Assembly: GCA_965279525.1 (NCBI GenBank)
Contig: CBDIIB010000005.1
Span: 1,056,001-1,120,000 of the forward strand
Direction of reading: 5' to 3'
DNA: 64,000 bases
DNA from: Tagaea sp.
Lineage (GTDB): Bacteria; Pseudomonadota; Alphaproteobacteria; CACIAM-22H2
The position numbers and the translations under genes were made by a program. Positions 1 through 6,527 of this stretch are shown here, piece after piece (positions within the stretch are counted from its first letter, which is position 1; each line of letters starts with the position of its first letter). The notes below the pieces were generated by a model. The model did not search any database. It was not told the origin of the DNA and saw only the letters and a program-made list of their open reading frames with translations.

Positions 1-1
1 G

Positions 2-400
2 ATGAACGCGATGTGCGCGGCCGAGGGCGTGGGGCTCATCCCCTATTCGCCGCTGGCGCGCGGTTTCCTTGCCGGCAACCGGGTGCGTGGCGGCGGCGGC
101 GAGACCGAGCGTTCGAAGAACGACGCGGGTGCGAAGCCCGACGCGTGGCGCGACTGCGACTGGAAGATCGTCGACGAGCTCAAGGCCATCGCCGCTTCGC
201 GCGGCGTCAAGCCCACGCAGGTCGCCTTCCTGTGGCTGTGGTCGAAATCCTATATGGCGGCCCCGATCATGGGGGCGACGAAGCTCGACCAGCTCGACGA
301 GGCGGCGGCGGCGGCCGACATGCCGGCCCTGACCGCGGAGGAAGTTTCGCGGCTCGAAGCGCCCTACCAGTGGCGCCCACATCCGGGCTGGAACAGCTGA
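2..400 (+). CDS. Aldo/keto reductase, C-terminal part (gene runs off the window start)
   Basis: Motifs PYSPLARGFL, VAFLWL, PIMGATK..QL are typical of the AKR C-terminal half; TGA stop at 398-400. Confidence 0.9.
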   Translation: MNAMCAAEGVGLIPYSPLARGFLAGNRVRGGGGETERSKNDAGAKPDAWRDCDWKIVDELKAIAASRGVKPTQVAFLWLWSKSYMAAPIMGATKLDQLDEAAAAADMPALTAEEVSRLEAPYQWRPHPGWNS

Positions 401-420
401 CGCGTCCTGCGGATTCGTCG
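359..420 (+). repeat. Direct repeat copy A (3' end of AKR gene plus 20 nt downstream)
   Basis: Aligns ungapped to 1144-1205 (offset 785) at 53/62 nt by hand count, with an exact 33-nt core TGGCGCCCACATCCGGGCTGGAACAGCTGACGC (371-403 = 1156-1188). Confidence 0.95.
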
Positions 421-422
421 AG

Positions 423-1142
423 ATGGCAGCAATCACGCTCTATTCCGGTCCCTTGAGCATGTTCGGCGCGAAGGTGCAGATCGCCGCGCTGGAGAAGGGC
501 CTCGCCGTCGATCTGGTGATGGTGCCCTTCGAGATGACGCGGCTGTACGAGCCCAAGCATCCGGATGTGCTGCGCATCAATCCGAAACGCCAGGTGCCGG
601 TGTTGATCCACGGCGCGCTGGAATTGTACGACTCGACGCAGATCTTCGAATATCTGGAAGACCTGACGCCCGACCCGCCGCTCTGGCCGCGCGAGATTGC
701 TGCCCGCGCCCGCGCCCGCCTGCTGGAGCATGAATCCGACGAAGTGTATTTCCCGCCGATCGTCCGCCTGATGGGCCTGCAGCAGACGCCCGACGATCCC
801 GCCGCCATCGCCGCCCGCGCGGCGGTGGCGACCTTCTACGCGAAACTGGAAGCGGCGCTGGCCGACGGCCGCGACTGGCTGGCCGGCGAGACCTACAGCT
901 TCGCCGACATCGCGTTTTTCATGGCGCAGATTTTCGGCGCCCGCATGGGCGCGCCGATGGCCGAAACAGGTGCCGAGCAGACGCCGCGCCTGCTGGCCTG
1001 GCGCGCACGCATGATGCGGCGCGAGGCCGTGCGGCAGGTGGCCGGTGCGATGGCGCGCTGGCTGCGCGGCATCGGCCGGACGCTGCCGCCGTTCATGGAC
1101 GAACTGGCGGCAACCGGGCGCGGGGTCGGGGACCGGCGCTGA
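423..1142 (+). CDS. Glutathione S-transferase family protein
   Basis: N-terminal LYSGPLSMFGAKV, INPKRQVPVL, LYDSTQIFEYLED; C-terminal WLAGETYSFADIA. Confidence 0.92.
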   Translation: MAAITLYSGPLSMFGAKVQIAALEKGLAVDLVMVPFEMTRLYEPKHPDVLRINPKRQVPVLIHGALELYDSTQIFEYLEDLTPDPPLWPREIAARARARLLEHESDEVYFPPIVRLMGLQQTPDDPAAIAARAAVATFYAKLEAALADGRDWLAGETYSFADIAFFMAQIFGARMGAPMAETGAEQTPRLLAWRARMMRREAVRQVAGAMARWLRGIGRTLPPFMDELAATGRGVGDRR

Positions 1143-1143
1143 C

Positions 1144-1205
1144 GCACCCGACCGTTGGCGCCCACATCCGGGCTGGAACAGCTGACGCTTCTCGCGGTAT
1201 CGTCG
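1144..1205 (+). repeat. Direct repeat copy B: orphan copy of the AKR 3' end (reads APDRWRPHPGWNS*)
   Basis: Matches 359-420; begins 1 nt after the GST stop codon. Confidence 0.95.
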
Positions 1206-1235
1206 CCGCCAAGATTCCGTTCTGGGGAGGAACGC

Positions 1236-2804
1236 ATGTTCGCACGCATCATCGCAACGGCGGCAATCGCCGCCGTGGCCTTCGTTTCCGTTTCGGCGGC
1301 ACAAGAACAGCCGCGCCGCGGGGGCGAATTCATCTTCGCGGTCGGCGGCGAGCCGGACACGACCGACTGCCATGCGGCGACGAACTTCGCGGTCGTCCAC
1401 CACCTGGCGCCGCACTATTCGACGCTGGTGAAATTCAACCCGCCGAAATATCCCGAGATCGTCGGCGACGTGGCCAAGGAATGGACCGTCTCGCCCGACG
1501 GCAAGACCTATACGTTCAAGCTCGTCCAGCCGATCAAGTTCCATGACGGCTCGGCGCTGACCTCGGCCGACGTCAAGGCGAGCTTCGATCGCATCAAGAC
1601 GCCGGTCACCGGTGCGCGCTCGGCGCGGCGCGACCATTTCGCCGACGTGGCTTCGGTCGAAGCCCCGGCACCCGACACGGTGGTGTTCAGGCTCAACAAT
1701 CCGAACCCGGCGTTCATGACCTACCTCGCCGCGCCCTTCAACTGCATCTACTCGGCAGCGAAGCTGGCGCAGGACCCGCGCTATCCCGAGAAGCAGGTGA
1801 TGGGCTCGGGCCCGTTCGTGTTCGGCGAGCGCGTTCCCGGCTCGCACTGGGCCGGCAAGCGCTTCGACGGCTATTTCCGTGCCGGATTGCCGCATCTCGA
1901 TGGCTTCCGCGCCACGACGATGAGCGGTGCGGCCATGCTCAACGCCGTGCAGGGCGGCCAGGTGATGGCCGAGTTCCGCGGCATCAGCCCGGCCGAGAAG
2001 GCGCGCGTCGCCGGCCCCAAGGTGACCTTCCAGGAAGCGCCGTGGCTGTCGGGCCTGATCCTGTCGTTCAACATCGAGCAGAAGCCGTTCGACGACGTGC
2101 GCGTGCGCCGGGCGCTGAGCCTCGCGCTCGACCGGTTCGGCTCGGCCCCGTCGCTGGCACGCGTGTCGCAGGTGATGTCGACCGGCTCGCTGCTGCGCCC
2201 GGGCTATGCCTATGCGCCGACCGAAGCCGAGCTGGCGACATATCCCGGCATGGGCCGCGACATGGCGCGCAACCGGGCCGAGGCGCGCAAGCTGCTTGCC
2301 GAGGCGGGCCAGTCGAACCTCAAATTCGAGATGATCTCGATGTCGCTGCCGCCCTTCCCGACCGTCGGCGTGTGGCTGATCGACCAATGGCGCCAGATCG
2401 GCGTGACTGTCGAGCAGCGCCAGGCCGAGCGTGCCACCTATTTCGGCGCGCGCACGTCGGGGGCGTTCCAGGTGATGCTCGATTTCACGACCGAGTTCGC
2501 CGACGAGCCGAACTTCCAGCTGCGCCGCTTCATCTCGTTCGACCGCGTGCCGGGATTCAACGTCAGCCGCCATCTCGACCGGCGCCTCGACGAGATCTTC
2601 GACCGGCAGGAGCGCGAGACCGACTTCAACAAGCGCAAGGCGCTGGTGCGCGACTTCCAGATCCAGCTGATGGACATGGCCTACACGGTGCCGCTGTTCT
2701 GGTTCACGCGCATCATCCCGCTCGCGTCCAACGTGCGCGGCTGGGACATCACGCCCTCGCACCTGCTCGGCCAGGACCTCGCGGGCGTGTGGCTGGCGCC
2801 CTGA
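1236..2804 (+). CDS. ABC transporter substrate-binding protein, family 5 (DppA/OppA-like)
   Basis: Signal peptide MFARIIATAAIAAVAF; WTVSPDGKTYTFKL, KFHDGS, GSGPF, PFDDVRVRRAL; GGAGG RBS upstream of ATG 1236. No permease or ATPase genes adjacent. Confidence 0.92.
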   Translation: MFARIIATAAIAAVAFVSVSAAQEQPRRGGEFIFAVGGEPDTTDCHAATNFAVVHHLAPHYSTLVKFNPPKYPEIVGDVAKEWTVSPDGKTYTFKLVQPIKFHDGSALTSADVKASFDRIKTPVTGARSARRDHFADVASVEAPAPDTVVFRLNNPNPAFMTYLAAPFNCIYSAAKLAQDPRYPEKQVMGSGPFVFGERVPGSHWAGKRFDGYFRAGLPHLDGFRATTMSGAAMLNAVQGGQVMAEFRGISPAEKARVAGPKVTFQEAPWLSGLILSFNIEQKPFDDVRVRRALSLALDRFGSAPSLARVSQVMSTGSLLRPGYAYAPTEAELATYPGMGRDMARNRAEARKLLAEAGQSNLKFEMISMSLPPFPTVGVWLIDQWRQIGVTVEQRQAERATYFGARTSGAFQVMLDFTTEFADEPNFQLRRFISFDRVPGFNVSRHLDRRLDEIFDRQERETDFNKRKALVRDFQIQLMDMAYTVPLFWFTRIIPLASNVRGWDITPSHLLGQDLAGVWLAP

Positions 2805-2806
2805 CG

Positions 2807-2851
2807 CCTCACCCTAGCCCTCTCCCCTTGCGGGAGAGGGCTAGGGTGAGG
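2807..2851. repeat. Perfect 20-bp inverted repeat (REP-like intergenic palindrome / possible bidirectional terminator)
   Basis: CCTCACCCTAGCCCTCTCCC-CTTGC-GGGAGAGGGCTAGGGTGAGG between convergent genes. Confidence 0.9.
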
Positions 2852-2882
2852 GGATCGCCATCTTCGATCCCGCCACGGTCGG
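2841..2882 (-). pseudogene. Displaced 3' fragment of the enolase-superfamily gene (PTVAGSKMAIPSP*)
   Basis: Minus-strand codons 2882-2853 give PTVAGSKMAI versus LTVAGSVAAI at 5453-5424: 7/10 aa and 20/30 nt identical, with five synonymous third-position differences. Confidence 0.65.
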
Positions 2883-2889
2883 CCCCTAT

Positions 2890-5298
2890 TCAGTCGAGGC
2901 GAATCATTTCCACTGCTTTCCCCAGACGTTCAGCCGTTTTGTCAAGGTTGGCTAGAATGCCACCGACGTCTTTTGAGGCTTCAAGATAAATTGTTTTGTT
3001 CACGTACTTGGTTCCAGGTCCAATTGCCCACCCATCATTTTCAAGTATCCCCACCGCGGATGCCAGTCGATCTGGCCACGTTTTCTCGACTTTTGACCAA
3101 TCTGCCTCGGGATTTAATTGATTGTGGAACGTCAGAAGTACCGAGTTACTTTTTATGCTCCCCTTCAGAGCACAGAGCCGCCCCGGTCTTCCAATACGAG
3201 TGAAAGTTGCACCATCGTCGCTTGATAGATAGCTATTGTCGAATGCACGAGCAAATAGCTCTTCGGCGCAAATATCCGGGGTTATTGAAGTGAGCTTTCC
3301 TCCCAATGCGCGGTCGATTTGCGAGAGGATTGCCCCAAAAGTCCGGACAGTTATTCTAAGCTGTGATTCTGGATTGGTAGAGCTTCGAATCAACCAACGA
3401 AGACGCGCAGCTGCAGATTTCCATTTGACCTTTGGATCTTGCCTGACACCGCTAGAAATCAAACCCAACCAATCTAAAGACTTGCTTCCGCCACTTGGCG
3501 GGGGCTTACCAGTCGCGCAAAAGTACGCCGTCATTCCAATTCCATATGAGTCAACAAGTGCTGATCTTGCTGCTTCTGCGTTTCCATCAGGAAGCTGCTC
3601 GGGTGCGTAATATGCCGCCTCGTCAGTACTACCGGAAATGCTCTCGCCTTGGGCATTCGAATGCCAAGACATGTCATAGTTCAATAACGTAACACTATGC
3701 CGGGAACCTCCTTCGAATGCTTCACATGCTTCTTCATCCCAATAAAATCTGGGAACCATAATGTTTGAAGGTCTCACATCTCTATGCAACACGCTTTCAG
3801 GCAGCGCGTGGGAGTTCTCAATATGATCGCATACGTTGCAGAGAACTTTTATGCCGTCGAGCCAAAAGTCAAATTTACTATCCAGCGCGATTTGCGCCAA
3901 ATTGGCTCCGTCGACAAACTTCATAATCATGCATGATGGAATCTCAACTGCATCCACTATTTCCGCCGTACCGGGGACTTTAGCTTTTGTTAGATAACGT
4001 AGAGATTGTACACCCCGCCGGAAGCTCTCAAGTTGAGGGCCTTTTTCCAAATTCTCGATCTTAATGATCTTTAGTGCGTAGTCATTGCTCTCCGAATCCG
4101 AGATTCGCCAGATTGAAGAGAAGGGGTTGCTGGATATCTTTTCCCTAACCACATATCCAAGAAATACGTTCGATGGAGCCTCTGTTGTGACATGCCAAGA
4201 CATATAAACCGCTCTAGAGTACTTCTTTAGAAATTCTTTATACTCGGCTGAATCAGTATTTCCAGAATTGCGGGCCAATATATCTCTGGCGTATCCCGCA
4301 AGTTCACCTCGAAGTTGGTCGTCATTGTCTAGTTCAATAAGTTCTTTCGGCGTGCGGATCTTTGTGCTTCTAGCGACGGACCCTACAACTGCTGGCGCGG
4401 CAGAATCGCGAGATACAAAGTTTTTGAGACTTTCGAGAATCTCAACTATTGCCGTAGTGTGATCAATTGTGTCGTCTGAAGCTCTGGTTGGCTGATAATT
4501 TATAACCTGAAGCTGTGTTTTTGCCGCCCATTTAGCGGTAGTCCCATCATTCCTGCTCGTAATCCAAAAATGTTGGTCGAGATCAACATGACTTCTTGTC
4601 ATTTCCTCAAGGAAGCCACCAACCGCTAAGTCGTCGGCTGAAATCCCGAGAAAAACAATGGTCAAATCTTTGAGAATGTAGTCGATAAATTGCCGGTACT
4701 GGCTATTTGAAAGGAGATGACTCAAATCACCTTTAGTAAACACCCATGAGTCAGCGTTTTCATGAACGCCATGGAGATTTGCGATGAACGGCTTTCTCTG
4801 AGAAACCCGATGAATATACGGACCCGCATCTTTACCGGAAAACTCCATCGAATCTTCGTGCGAACGAATAAGGCGATGGGAACGACGGGCCATTCCATCG
4901 ATATTCAAAGTCAGAACACTCTTAACGCCGTCAAGCTTCCAAAGCTCTTCATACACTCTAGGTGGATCAACACGTTCGGCCTTCTCAAACACCTCTCGAA
5001 TCGCCGATCGATATTTTGCAGCCCCGAGAACATCCCGCAATGTCTCGAAGGAATCCCAAAGAGACGCATCCGATCCAAGACGCTCTAATCTGTCTTCAAT
5101 CTCATCTACTTTTGACGCTTCAGCAGTCAACAATTCTTGCTTAGCTTCATCGGCTAAAATGTCACGAAGTTCTGACCATGAAGGCAAGCCTGCTGGCTGG
5201 CTAATCCCCGCGCCAATCCAAAACGCAATATCCTTTGTCCGCTCTGCGTACCTGCGGCCCAAACGAAGAAAGCTACCTTGATTTGGATTGAAAAGCAT
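2890..5298 (-). CDS. SIR2-like domain fused to a Ser/Thr protein kinase-like domain (802 aa); putative anti-phage defence protein
   Basis: SIR2-type motifs FWIGAGISQPAGLPSW, TLNID, NLHG, IVFLGISADD; kinase motifs YALK, HRDVRPSNI, YYAPEQ, DSYGIG; markedly AT-rich relative to flanks. Confidence 0.85.
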   Translation of the reverse strand: MLFNPNQGSFLRLGRRYAERTKDIAFWIGAGISQPAGLPSWSELRDILADEAKQELLTAEASKVDEIEDRLERLGSDASLWDSFETLRDVLGAAKYRSAIREVFEKAERVDPPRVYEELWKLDGVKSVLTLNIDGMARRSHRLIRSHEDSMEFSGKDAGPYIHRVSQRKPFIANLHGVHENADSWVFTKGDLSHLLSNSQYRQFIDYILKDLTIVFLGISADDLAVGGFLEEMTRSHVDLDQHFWITSRNDGTTAKWAAKTQLQVINYQPTRASDDTIDHTTAIVEILESLKNFVSRDSAAPAVVGSVARSTKIRTPKELIELDNDDQLRGELAGYARDILARNSGNTDSAEYKEFLKKYSRAVYMSWHVTTEAPSNVFLGYVVREKISSNPFSSIWRISDSESNDYALKIIKIENLEKGPQLESFRRGVQSLRYLTKAKVPGTAEIVDAVEIPSCMIMKFVDGANLAQIALDSKFDFWLDGIKVLCNVCDHIENSHALPESVLHRDVRPSNIMVPRFYWDEEACEAFEGGSRHSVTLLNYDMSWHSNAQGESISGSTDEAAYYAPEQLPDGNAEAARSALVDSYGIGMTAYFCATGKPPPSGGSKSLDWLGLISSGVRQDPKVKWKSAAARLRWLIRSSTNPESQLRITVRTFGAILSQIDRALGGKLTSITPDICAEELFARAFDNSYLSSDDGATFTRIGRPGRLCALKGSIKSNSVLLTFHNQLNPEADWSKVEKTWPDRLASAVGILENDGWAIGPGTKYVNKTIYLEASKDVGGILANLDKTAERLGKAVEMIRLD

Positions 5299-5344
5299 TC
5301 CAGCACCCTTGAGATTTAATATTTTCTGGTTGTGTATTTTTTCA

Positions 5345-5380
5345 ATTATAATTTAGTATGCATATCTCGCCGAATGTCAA
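5345..5380 (-). promoter_or_regulatory. Putative sigma70-type promoter region of the SIR2-kinase gene
   Basis: Minus strand has TTGACA (5380-5375), then TACTAA at a 16-nt spacer, TAAATT at 19 nt and TATAAT at 24 nt, in an AT-rich leader; the exact pairing is ambiguous. Confidence 0.45.
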
Positions 5381-5417
5381 ATATTGGTCGACGATTCAAT
5401 TTGGACTTGTGCGGGCA

Positions 5418-6527
5418 CTACTCAATTGCCGCCACCGAACCCGCGACCGTCAGCTTCTCGACCGACGGCCAGTCCCATTCGATGCCGAGGCCCGGCGTGG
5501 TCGCCGGTGCCACGTGGCCGTCGGCGACGTGCACGGGGCTGGGGGCGACGGCGTCGAGCTGCGGGATGTATTCGAGCCAGGCCGAGTTGGGCACGGCGCA
5601 CACGAGTGCGAGGTGCAGCTCCATCAGGAAGTGCGGGGCGACGGCCACGTTGCAGCACTCGGCCATGTGCGCGACCTTCAGCCACGGCGTGATGCCGCCG
5701 ATGCGCGCCACGTCCACCTGAACGATGCCGCAGGCGTTGCGCTTCAGGTAGTCCGCGAACTGGCCGGGCGAATAGAGCGACTCGCCCACCGCGATCGGGA
5801 TCTGCGTGCCGGCCTGCAGGCGCACGTGGCCGTCCACGTCGTCGGCGGGCAGCGGCTCCTCGAACCAGTCGAGATCGAGATCGGCCCACAGCAGGGCGCG
5901 GCGCAGCGCTTCGGCCGCCGTGAAGCGCTGGTTGGCATCGACCATCAGGCAGAAGCCGGGCCCCACGGCCGCGCGCACGGCCGCAAGGCGCCTGCGGTCT
6001 TCGGCACCCGAAGGCTTGCCGACCTTGAGCTTGGCGCCCGCGAAGCCCTGTTCGCGCGCCTTCAGCGTCTCGTCGACGAGCTGTTCGGGGGGATGGTGCA
6101 GCCAGCCACCCTCGGTCGTGTAGACCGGGATGCGCGTCTTGGCCCCGCCGGCGGCCAAGTGCAGCGGCAGCTTCGCGCGCCGGCAGCGCAGGTCCCACAA
6201 GGCCGTGTCGATCGCCGCCATCGCCAGCGACGTGATGGCGCCCACCGTGGTCGCGTGCGTGTGGAAGAGCATGCCGTTCCAGATGCCCTCGATGGCGTCC
6301 GCGTCCTTGCCCAGCAGATACGGCCCCAGACAGTCGCGCAGCATCGCCATCACGGCCGAGCCGCCCGTGCCGATCGTGTAGCTGTAGCCCGTGCCCACGG
6401 CGCCGTCGGCGTCCCAGATCCGCACCATCGGCGTTTCCTGGCGCACGAAGGATTGGATGGCGTCTGTCCTTACGACCGGAGGTACGAGGTCGACCTGGCG
6501 GATTTCGATCCGGACGATGCGCGACAT
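5418..6527 (-). CDS. Mandelate racemase/muconate lactonizing enzyme family (enolase superfamily), likely sugar-acid dehydratase
   Basis: AAIDTALWDL, KLKVG, MVDANQ, WFEEP, GESLY, DVARIGGIT, PGLGI. Confidence 0.92.
   Translation of the reverse strand: MSRIVRIEIRQVDLVPPVVRTDAIQSFVRQETPMVRIWDADGAVGTGYSYTIGTGGSAVMAMLRDCLGPYLLGKDADAIEGIWNGMLFHTHATTVGAITSLAMAAIDTALWDLRCRRAKLPLHLAAGGAKTRIPVYTTEGGWLHHPPEQLVDETLKAREQGFAGAKLKVGKPSGAEDRRRLAAVRAAVGPGFCLMVDANQRFTAAEALRRALLWADLDLDWFEEPLPADDVDGHVRLQAGTQIPIAVGESLYSPGQFADYLKRNACGIVQVDVARIGGITPWLKVAHMAECCNVAVAPHFLMELHLALVCAVPNSAWLEYIPQLDAVAPSPVHVADGHVAPATTPGLGIEWDWPSVEKLTVAGSVAAIE

Follow-up and report, generated by a model that had tools for sequence, protein, structure and literature searches.

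How can a single accessory gene enter a bacterial chromosome between two others, leave both of them whole, and bring no machinery for movement with it? The question is raised by the start of a 64,000-nucleotide stretch of Tagaea sp., an alphaproteobacterium (assembly GCA_965279525.1, contig CBDIIB010000005.1, positions 1,056,001 to 1,120,000, forward strand; this whole stretch is called the window below, and the genome G000). Here a glutathione S-transferase (GST) open reading frame (ORF) lies between the end of an aldo/keto reductase (AKR) gene and the gene of a family-5 solute-binding protein (SBP), the three identities that an earlier note had read from the letters and that Pfam supports. 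The GST gene is a lineage-specific single-gene insertion that left both neighbors intact, and it is bracketed by two copies of a 62-bp segment of which the closest relative has a single one.

The two repeat copies, A and B (coordinates of all features are given in Table 1), align without gaps at 53 of 62 positions, and their longest exact run of 33 nt (371-403 = 1156-1188) lies over the AKR stop codon, TGA at 398-400; this is the alignment that the earlier note had obtained. BLAST adds three bases leftward (356-420 versus 1141-1205, 85%), and similarity ends sharply past 420 and 1205. The segment occurs just twice in the whole 4.35-Mb genome (self-match E 8.5e-42, second copy 3.2e-14, next best 0.18), and the match exceeds chance. 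Copy A is translated as APYQWRPHPGWNS and copy B as APDRWRPHPGWNS, each followed by a stop; the full AKR ORF, read from the genome, begins 589 nt before the window, has 329 aa, and ends in ...APYQWRPHPGWNS. The near-exact fit of the GST ORF between the copies, also seen earlier, is real: it starts 2 nt past copy A, ends 1 nt short of copy B, and takes up 720 of the 723 nt between them. At 62–65 bp the repeat is, as the note had argued, far longer than a transposon target duplication. Insertion of an insertion sequence or transposon does not fit that length (62 bp against 2–14 bp) or the absence of inverted termini and of a transposase ORF, and neither does a self-contained integrative element, for whose recombinase there is no room.

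Positions 1-2800 of the window were searched against 60 relatives, 20 of them other species of the genus. The AKR end adjoins SBP on one contig in 15 of these 20 congeners, and the junction sequence was read in 14. In G012, the closest relative (nucleotide identity 91% in AKR and 94% in SBP), the matches to 1-420 and to 1141-2798 overlap by 65 nt on one copy, with no GST. The remaining five congeners have a different, divergently transcribed neighbor upstream of SBP. A protein search (E ≤ 1e-20) found the GST in none of the 20, one 46% paralogue excepted. The same empty state occurs in a metagenome, run X1, where a 1346-nt contig about 95% identical to the window joins 404 straight to 1190. 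The empty allele that the earlier note had proposed to look for is therefore present in 15 congeners and one metagenome contig, and its proposal of an insertion at the AKR 3' end with AKR kept whole is supported by the empty sites and by the lack of the GST in the congeners.

The reverse history, in which AKR-GST-SBP is the clade's old order and GST was removed precisely from the relatives when one repeat recombined with the other, has some appeal: a loss of this kind, across the core, would produce just the sequence of the empty G012 site, and the divergence of the inner arms described below suggests an age at or beyond the G000–G012 split. Two congeners, G007 and G014, also carry small cargo-free tandem duplications of the same AKR end (17 nt at 82% and 20 nt at 80%, respectively), which could be its scars; more broadly, these may be scars of lost inserts or the sign of a duplication-prone junction. 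Yet many losses would be needed, with 15 of 20 congeners empty, the closest (94%) among them, and the GST in none of the 20, and the closest GST sequences are found in other genera (75%–78% nucleotide identity) and in other contexts. We regard this history as improbable.

What was duplicated is more than the end of a gene. The segment holds the last 13 AKR codons and the stop, and also a conserved promoter-like motif upstream of SBP, whose ATG is preceded by a Shine-Dalgarno-like stretch, GGGGAGGAA. The pattern [AG]GAAC-N16/17-TAnnnT, which was defined after inspection of the data, is present in copy B and in 14 of 14 relatives, each time equally far upstream of the SBP start, and the spacer between its two boxes varies freely among the relatives. 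Its first box is built from the Trp-Asn codons of AKR and is of a GGAAC type that we presume to be reminiscent of ECF-sigma promoters; the tandem duplications of G007 and G014 put a noncoding copy of this box at the right distance from the second. In copy A the −10-like hexamer reads ATTCGT (413-418) instead of TATCGT, and the pattern is lost. We infer from this arrangement that the motif functions as the SBP promoter. The AKR end and the promoter would then overlap, and a plain insertion here would break one of them; because the segment is duplicated, the AKR end is kept in copy A and the SBP upstream element in copy B. The earlier description of a diverged duplication of the AKR gene end was thus right as to what AKR contributes but left out the promoter-like motif, and it treated as simple divergence what proves to be a mosaic.

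The mosaic becomes visible when each copy is divided into a left arm, core, and right arm. The empty site of G012 equals the left arm and core of copy A followed by the right arm of copy B, with one difference: the left arm (359-370) and core (371-403) of copy A are identical to it, and the native right arm of copy B (1189-1205) carries the single difference. The two arms that touch GST are non-native at nine of 29 positions, while the outer arms and the core are native. Five of 17 positions differ from copy B in the right arm of copy A (404-420), and four of 12 differ from the native sequence in the left arm of copy B (1144-1155), where a Tyr shared by 14 of 14 relatives read has become Asp. 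Differences number 0/33 in the core and 9/29 in the arms (Fisher P 0.0005); for copy B alone the comparison is 0/33 against 4/12 in the left arm (P 0.003). The variants of the inner arms are found in none of the 14 relatives read.

Our preferred route, held with a confidence that falls a little short of even, is duplication on the spot followed by decay. A 723-nt piece, almost exactly one ORF, would have entered the AKR 3' end in such a way that the 62–65 bp around the point of entry now stand on both sides. The duplication would have arisen in the G000 lineage, either by fill-in of a staggered break or by a replication template switch back of about 62 nt, and the arms left without function (copy A past the stop codon, copy B before the −35-like box) would later have decayed. 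No mobility machinery is present: the insert is filled by the ORF, the repeat has no inverted repeats, and it is unique in the genome. Three other insertions in G000, described below, look like plain duplications, which fits such an in situ route. The motif survives in copy B and in 14/14 relatives but not in copy A, fitting the expected pattern of constraint, and the Tyr-to-Asp change lies in the altered arm of copy B, as expected for a dead fragment. Two other sources of the inner-arm differences were considered. Error-prone fill-in was rejected, since it would have to produce 30% mismatches, in our judgment implausibly high for any polymerase. Chance microhomology of a foreign fragment fits poorly with the insertion at C5:1833204, where the native gene is clearly the source of the equivalent arm.

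Several observations weigh against duplication on the spot. The step in divergence from core to arm is abrupt and resembles a recombination breakpoint. At four-fold sites, G000 and G012 diverge by 0.16 in SBP (48/296) and 0.23 in AKR (38/168), or about 0.09–0.135 per branch after correction, and nine single differences in 29 nt (Jukes-Cantor distance 0.40) exceed what one branch since the G012 split would give (P 0.002–0.03); three of the nine are adjacent doublets, and when they are counted as six events, post-split drift is not rejected (P 0.05–0.26). The nearest GST, 71%–73% identical, is too distant to reveal a donor or junction microhomology. A search of the genome (97% completeness) for Ku, PF02735, gave no match, and capture by Ku/LigD end joining is for that reason without support. 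Finally, Logan unitigs break within both 33-nt cores and by themselves do not confirm the AKR-GST-SBP linkage.

The mosaic itself suggests another route, in which GST came with a diverged copy of the AKR-end/SBP-promoter segment and recombined within the resident 33-bp core by a Campbell-type or "ends-in" event, the donor being an unsampled relative with the cassette at the same site or a circle excised there. Copy A would then consist of resident left arm, core, and incoming right arm, and copy B of incoming left arm, core, and resident right arm. This predicts exactly what is observed, outer arms and core as in G012 and GST-touching arms non-native, with a step that is sharp at both core edges, and it accommodates inner arms too diverged for post-split drift when differences are counted singly. 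An identity of 33 bp slightly exceeds the minimum commonly given for RecA-dependent exchange. Congeners also co-occur, since the G000 form and a G019-like empty allele are found together in run X23, and the SIR2–kinase island downstream of SBP has the same mosaic layout of a neighbor's gene end. As a lead only, the groundwater metagenome X1 contains GST pieces of 276 and 151 nt (on window 450-894) that are 97%–98% identical to ours, and the sole AKR/SBP contig shown from it is the ~95% empty form; its contigs are incomplete, and the GST in X1 may sit in another context or organism. Against this route, the donor was not found at any of 164 GST-homologue loci, the cassette is in 0/20 congeners, and the inner-arm variants occur in no relative read. 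A primary insertion with target duplication would still be needed elsewhere, selection on the coding end in copy A and the promoter-like element in copy B can yield the same mosaic, and the three other G000 cases look like plain duplications. We consider recombination with an incoming copy a substantial possibility, though a minority one.

The search for a source centered on the cargo. By its predicted thioredoxin-like N-terminal domain (PF13417, residues 6-86, E 3.7e-13) and helical C-terminal domain (PF00043, residues 113-201, E 8.3e-10) it is a member of the GST superfamily; no NCBIfam equivalog reaches its cut-off. Its GC content (0.686) and GC3 (0.867) are similar to those of the neighboring genes. 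Among the best 80 loci each from genome and metagenome contigs, the nearest homologues are 71%–73% identical in amino acids across the aligned stretch, and the nearest DNA (75%–78% nucleotide identity) is in four other genera of the family, with no AKR or SBP nearby. None of the full set of 164 loci (80 genome-contig, 80 metagenome-contig, and four from the same family, L193-L196) has an AKR or SBP homologue nearby (tblastn E ≤ 1e-3); the repeat is in the flanks of 0/160, and nothing like the inner arms is in the flanks of 45. Transcription of GST from the AKR promoter, as the earlier note had supposed, is plausible: the gene is on the AKR strand, 22 nt past the AKR stop, with no Shine-Dalgarno-like motif in the bases ahead of its ATG and no intact promoter-like element before it. 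Consensus scans for promoters and terminators in 1-3000 gave 0 sites, but they were silent across the whole 3 kb and hence carry no weight.

Could the locus be an artifact of assembly, the true state being an empty chromosome with a free 785-bp circle, or a mis-joined mixture of strains? The k-mer contigs do break in both cores, and the graph alone permits AKR-core-SBP plus GST-core-GST at equal depth. However, any ordinary read spans a 33-nt repeat, and in each of the three runs the same three pieces recur, with matching depths (6.5/6.3/6.3, 11.2/10.2/9.95, and 2/2/2). No high-identity empty joint is present in X21 or X24, and both junction arms of GST are real sequence with 0 differences. 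In the Logan contigs of the three organism-bearing runs (X21 and X24 are one sample, X23 another), 374-1185 is recovered with 0 differences, that of X24 in pieces; runs X2-X20 hold small shares of the query words only. No circle joint is seen in the run contigs, from which rare variants are lost and which are unable to bridge the 33-nt core together with its two flanks. An artifact seems to us extremely improbable.

The GST insertion is not alone of its kind in this genome. From a genome scan for isolated direct repeats, 18 of 80 isolated hits were inspected, and most of the 80 were dropped as motifs of adjacent paralogues, palindromes resembling repetitive extragenic palindromes (REPs), or tRNA ends. 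At least three more lineage-specific insertions are present, with target duplications of 46–187 bp and a one-copy empty site in relatives. At the first, L197, the duplicated segment comprises the end of a TauE/SafE-family gene and the start of the next gene, around a 1.13-kb insert; the site is empty in 17 of 20 congeners, with both flanks overlapping on one copy, while G001 and G002 show a gap and G010 (74% complete) gives no match. At L198, where the duplicated segment likewise takes in the 3' end of the neighboring gene, the insert of 771 nt encodes a 217-aa secreted protein of no known family, and the nonfunctional downstream copy has suffered a 54-nt deletion between GCCGAC repeats plus two substitutions; the empty site is seen in G012, G019, G011, and G013. 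At the third, L212, the insert supplies the target gene with a new C-terminal tail. G013 has an empty target site and carries the cluster (82% identical) elsewhere on that contig, at a distance of about 30 kb.

Table 1. Features of the GST locus (window coordinates) and of related sites in G000 and congeners
Feature	Position	Strand	Details
AKR gene, 3' part	1..400	+	Pfam PF00248 Aldo_ket_red on 2-400, E 6.5e-20
Copy A of duplicated target	359..420	+	left arm 359-370, core 371-403, right arm 404-420
GST ORF, 239 aa, sole cargo	423..1142	+	Pfam GST_N_3, GST_N_2, GST_N, GST_C
Copy B of duplicated target	1144..1205	+	left arm 1144-1155, core 1156-1188, right arm 1189-1205
Promoter-like motif upstream of SBP	1175..1203	+	GGAACA (1175-1180), 17 nt, TATCGT (1198-1203)
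SBP gene, family-5 solute-binding protein	1236..2804	+	Pfam PF00496 SBP_bac_5, E 3.4e-64
SIR2-like plus protein kinase gene, 802 aa	2890-5298	-	47% GC vs 66% for the genome
AKR-end tandem duplication, G007	L015:1484-1517		17 nt at 82%
AKR-end tandem duplication, G014	L018:3123-3186		20 nt at 80% plus 10-nt repeat
Locus L197	C2:29180-29366 and +1319 (to 30685)		~187-bp duplication, 3 differences, derived states in both copies; one outer-membrane beta-barrel (OMP) gene
Locus L198	C5:1833204-1833322 and downstream (to 1834150)		119-bp duplication of gene 3' end; one secreted-protein gene
Locus L212	C5:805637 and +6578 (to 812260)		~46-bp duplication of gene 3' end; 6.45-kb gene cluster

A further candidate lies in the window itself. 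The SIR2–kinase gene next to SBP is absent from the site in G012 and G019 and from 49 of 49 genomes of the family, and it looks like a recently acquired gene of a defense type. Its flanks of about 30 nt (2853-2882 and 5424-5453) match at 19 of 30 positions, a score that 11 of 2,000 shuffles reach, and both flank copies code for versions of the C-terminal end of its right-hand neighbor; judged from these letters, it is a probable further insertion with target duplication.

Other observations were made along the way. The SBP gene has no permease or ATPase genes adjoining it within the window, and its best NCBIfam match, below threshold, is the glutathione-binding GsiB, a curious find next to an inserted GST, though it may be coincidence. 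Directly after its stop lies a REP-like perfect palindrome (2806-2852), with several copies nearby in G019 (36-nt exact matches). An Rfam scan of 1-6000 gave no match at the repeat/GST locus, and only subthreshold microRNA matches on the palindrome (2800-2862). Within L197, in the otherwise variable spacer between the TauE-family and flavoprotein genes, an AT-rich motif at C2:29265-29300 (...TTATTTTAGGTCTAAAGTA...) is almost unchanged in five congeners, perhaps as an operator or RNA element. Elsewhere, tRNA-like 3' ends form direct repeats at C5:136254-136312 and +4241, around a 4.2-kb, 48%-GC segment, and at C4:56476-56634 and +6331, around a 6.3-kb segment, as is expected of classical integrase-type islands.

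How does the GST locus compare with known systems? Insertion with long target duplication has been described for restriction-modification (RM) genes (Nobusato et al. 2000, cited in PMC2853133). In the accessible part of the survey by Furuta, Abe & Kobayashi (2010, Nucleic Acids Research [NAR] 38:2428; PMC2853133), the repeats are 46–423 bp, some overlap the 3' end of a gene, the screen was designed for RM cargo, and its authors suggest that double-strand breaks made by the RM enzymes drive the event. By the criteria given there, the GST locus is an insertion with long target duplication with a non-RM cargo. The insert is missing from relatives in which both flanks align (15 of 20 congeners; G012 flanks 91%–94%), and both repeats align to a single copy in the empty genome (G012, 65-nt overlap). 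The duplication, at 62–65 bp, exceeds 30 bp, and the insert, at 723 nt, is below 20 kb, lacks mobility genes, and has a repeat that is not multicopy (two copies in 4.35 Mb). Its cargo is a GST, RM content having been a criterion of the screen and not of the rearrangement. The type of event is thus already known, but, as far as that portion of the literature goes, almost only for RM genes. Two differences from those cases stand out. The repeats at the GST locus are mosaic at 53/62, whereas those reported are near-identical, and the cargoes in G000 (a GST, an OMP gene, a secreted-protein gene, and a 6.45-kb cluster) include no RM system. RM-enzyme breakage as suggested there cannot be the driver at the G000 loci, because their cargo is not RM. 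This non-RM cargo, together with the at least three further cases in G000, shows that the event type is independent of restriction enzymes.

The locus also resembles elements of the Campbell or att-site type: direct repeats at a gene 3' end with an identical core and unlike arms, hybrids of resident, core, and incoming sequence, a target gene left with its 3' end intact, and excision as a circle possible in principle, as the earlier note had suggested. One might therefore regard the 62-bp unit as an att-like or attC-like site of a miniature element moved by a recombinase encoded elsewhere, the more so as the insert is cassette-sized and nearly ORF-exact. Unlike att-site elements, however, the 785-bp GST unit has one ORF and no integrase or excisionase within or beside it (the neighbors are AKR, SBP, and the SIR2–kinase gene), and the insert is too small for an integrase. 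The genome has no third copy of the site, and the other G000 insertions lie at unrelated 46–187-bp targets, which argues for a sequence-independent process. Integron cassettes are likewise similar in being one promoterless, cassette-sized ORF with almost no flank followed by a repeat unit of about 60 bp; here, however, the unit is the host's own AKR end, without attC-like inverted repeats and with no GTTRRRY-type core at its edges. No inverted repeats are present in 330-440, only weak overlapping ones in 1120-1260, and no cassette array is visible in 1-6000. We consider a miniature site-specific element very improbable.

Homology-facilitated and double illegitimate recombination occur in transformation. 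Similar in outcome is illegitimate capture, in which a heterologous fragment is integrated without a mobile element, as in the capture of foreign DNA by nonhomologous end joining in Sinorhizobium (Dupuy et al. 2019, PMC6379672). The two differ in that target duplication is not mentioned in the available portion of that paper and that no Ku gene was found in G000.

The machinery-free entry of single accessory genes into bacterial chromosomes is poorly documented, and the GST locus is a clean and dated example, with empty sites in 15 sister species. Its target duplication is functionally readable, as it resolves the overlap between the end of one gene and the promoter-like element of the next. 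If the mosaic arms are in truth footprints of recombination, duplication would be a means by which cassettes move between species. We doubt, but take seriously enough to set out, that the target duplication is the vehicle of a recombinase-free single-gene cassette that carries its own insertion site as portable homology. Host homologous recombination would in that case free the cassette as a circle, the two copies exchanging with each other, and insert it at orthologous sites of related genomes by exchange within the best-conserved block, which we likewise hold to be possible rather than probable. That block might, on this same doubtful footing, be the 33-nt core, its identity maintained by the coding needs of AKR in one copy and those of the SBP promoter-like element in the other, and it is no likelier that the mosaic arms at the GST and SIR2–kinase genes mark hops between species. 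Were the target duplication such a vehicle, the life cycle proposed for RM units by Kobayashi's group would apply to ordinary metabolic and defense genes as well. In these Alphaproteobacteria, genes may be gained by insertion with long target duplication as a general route.

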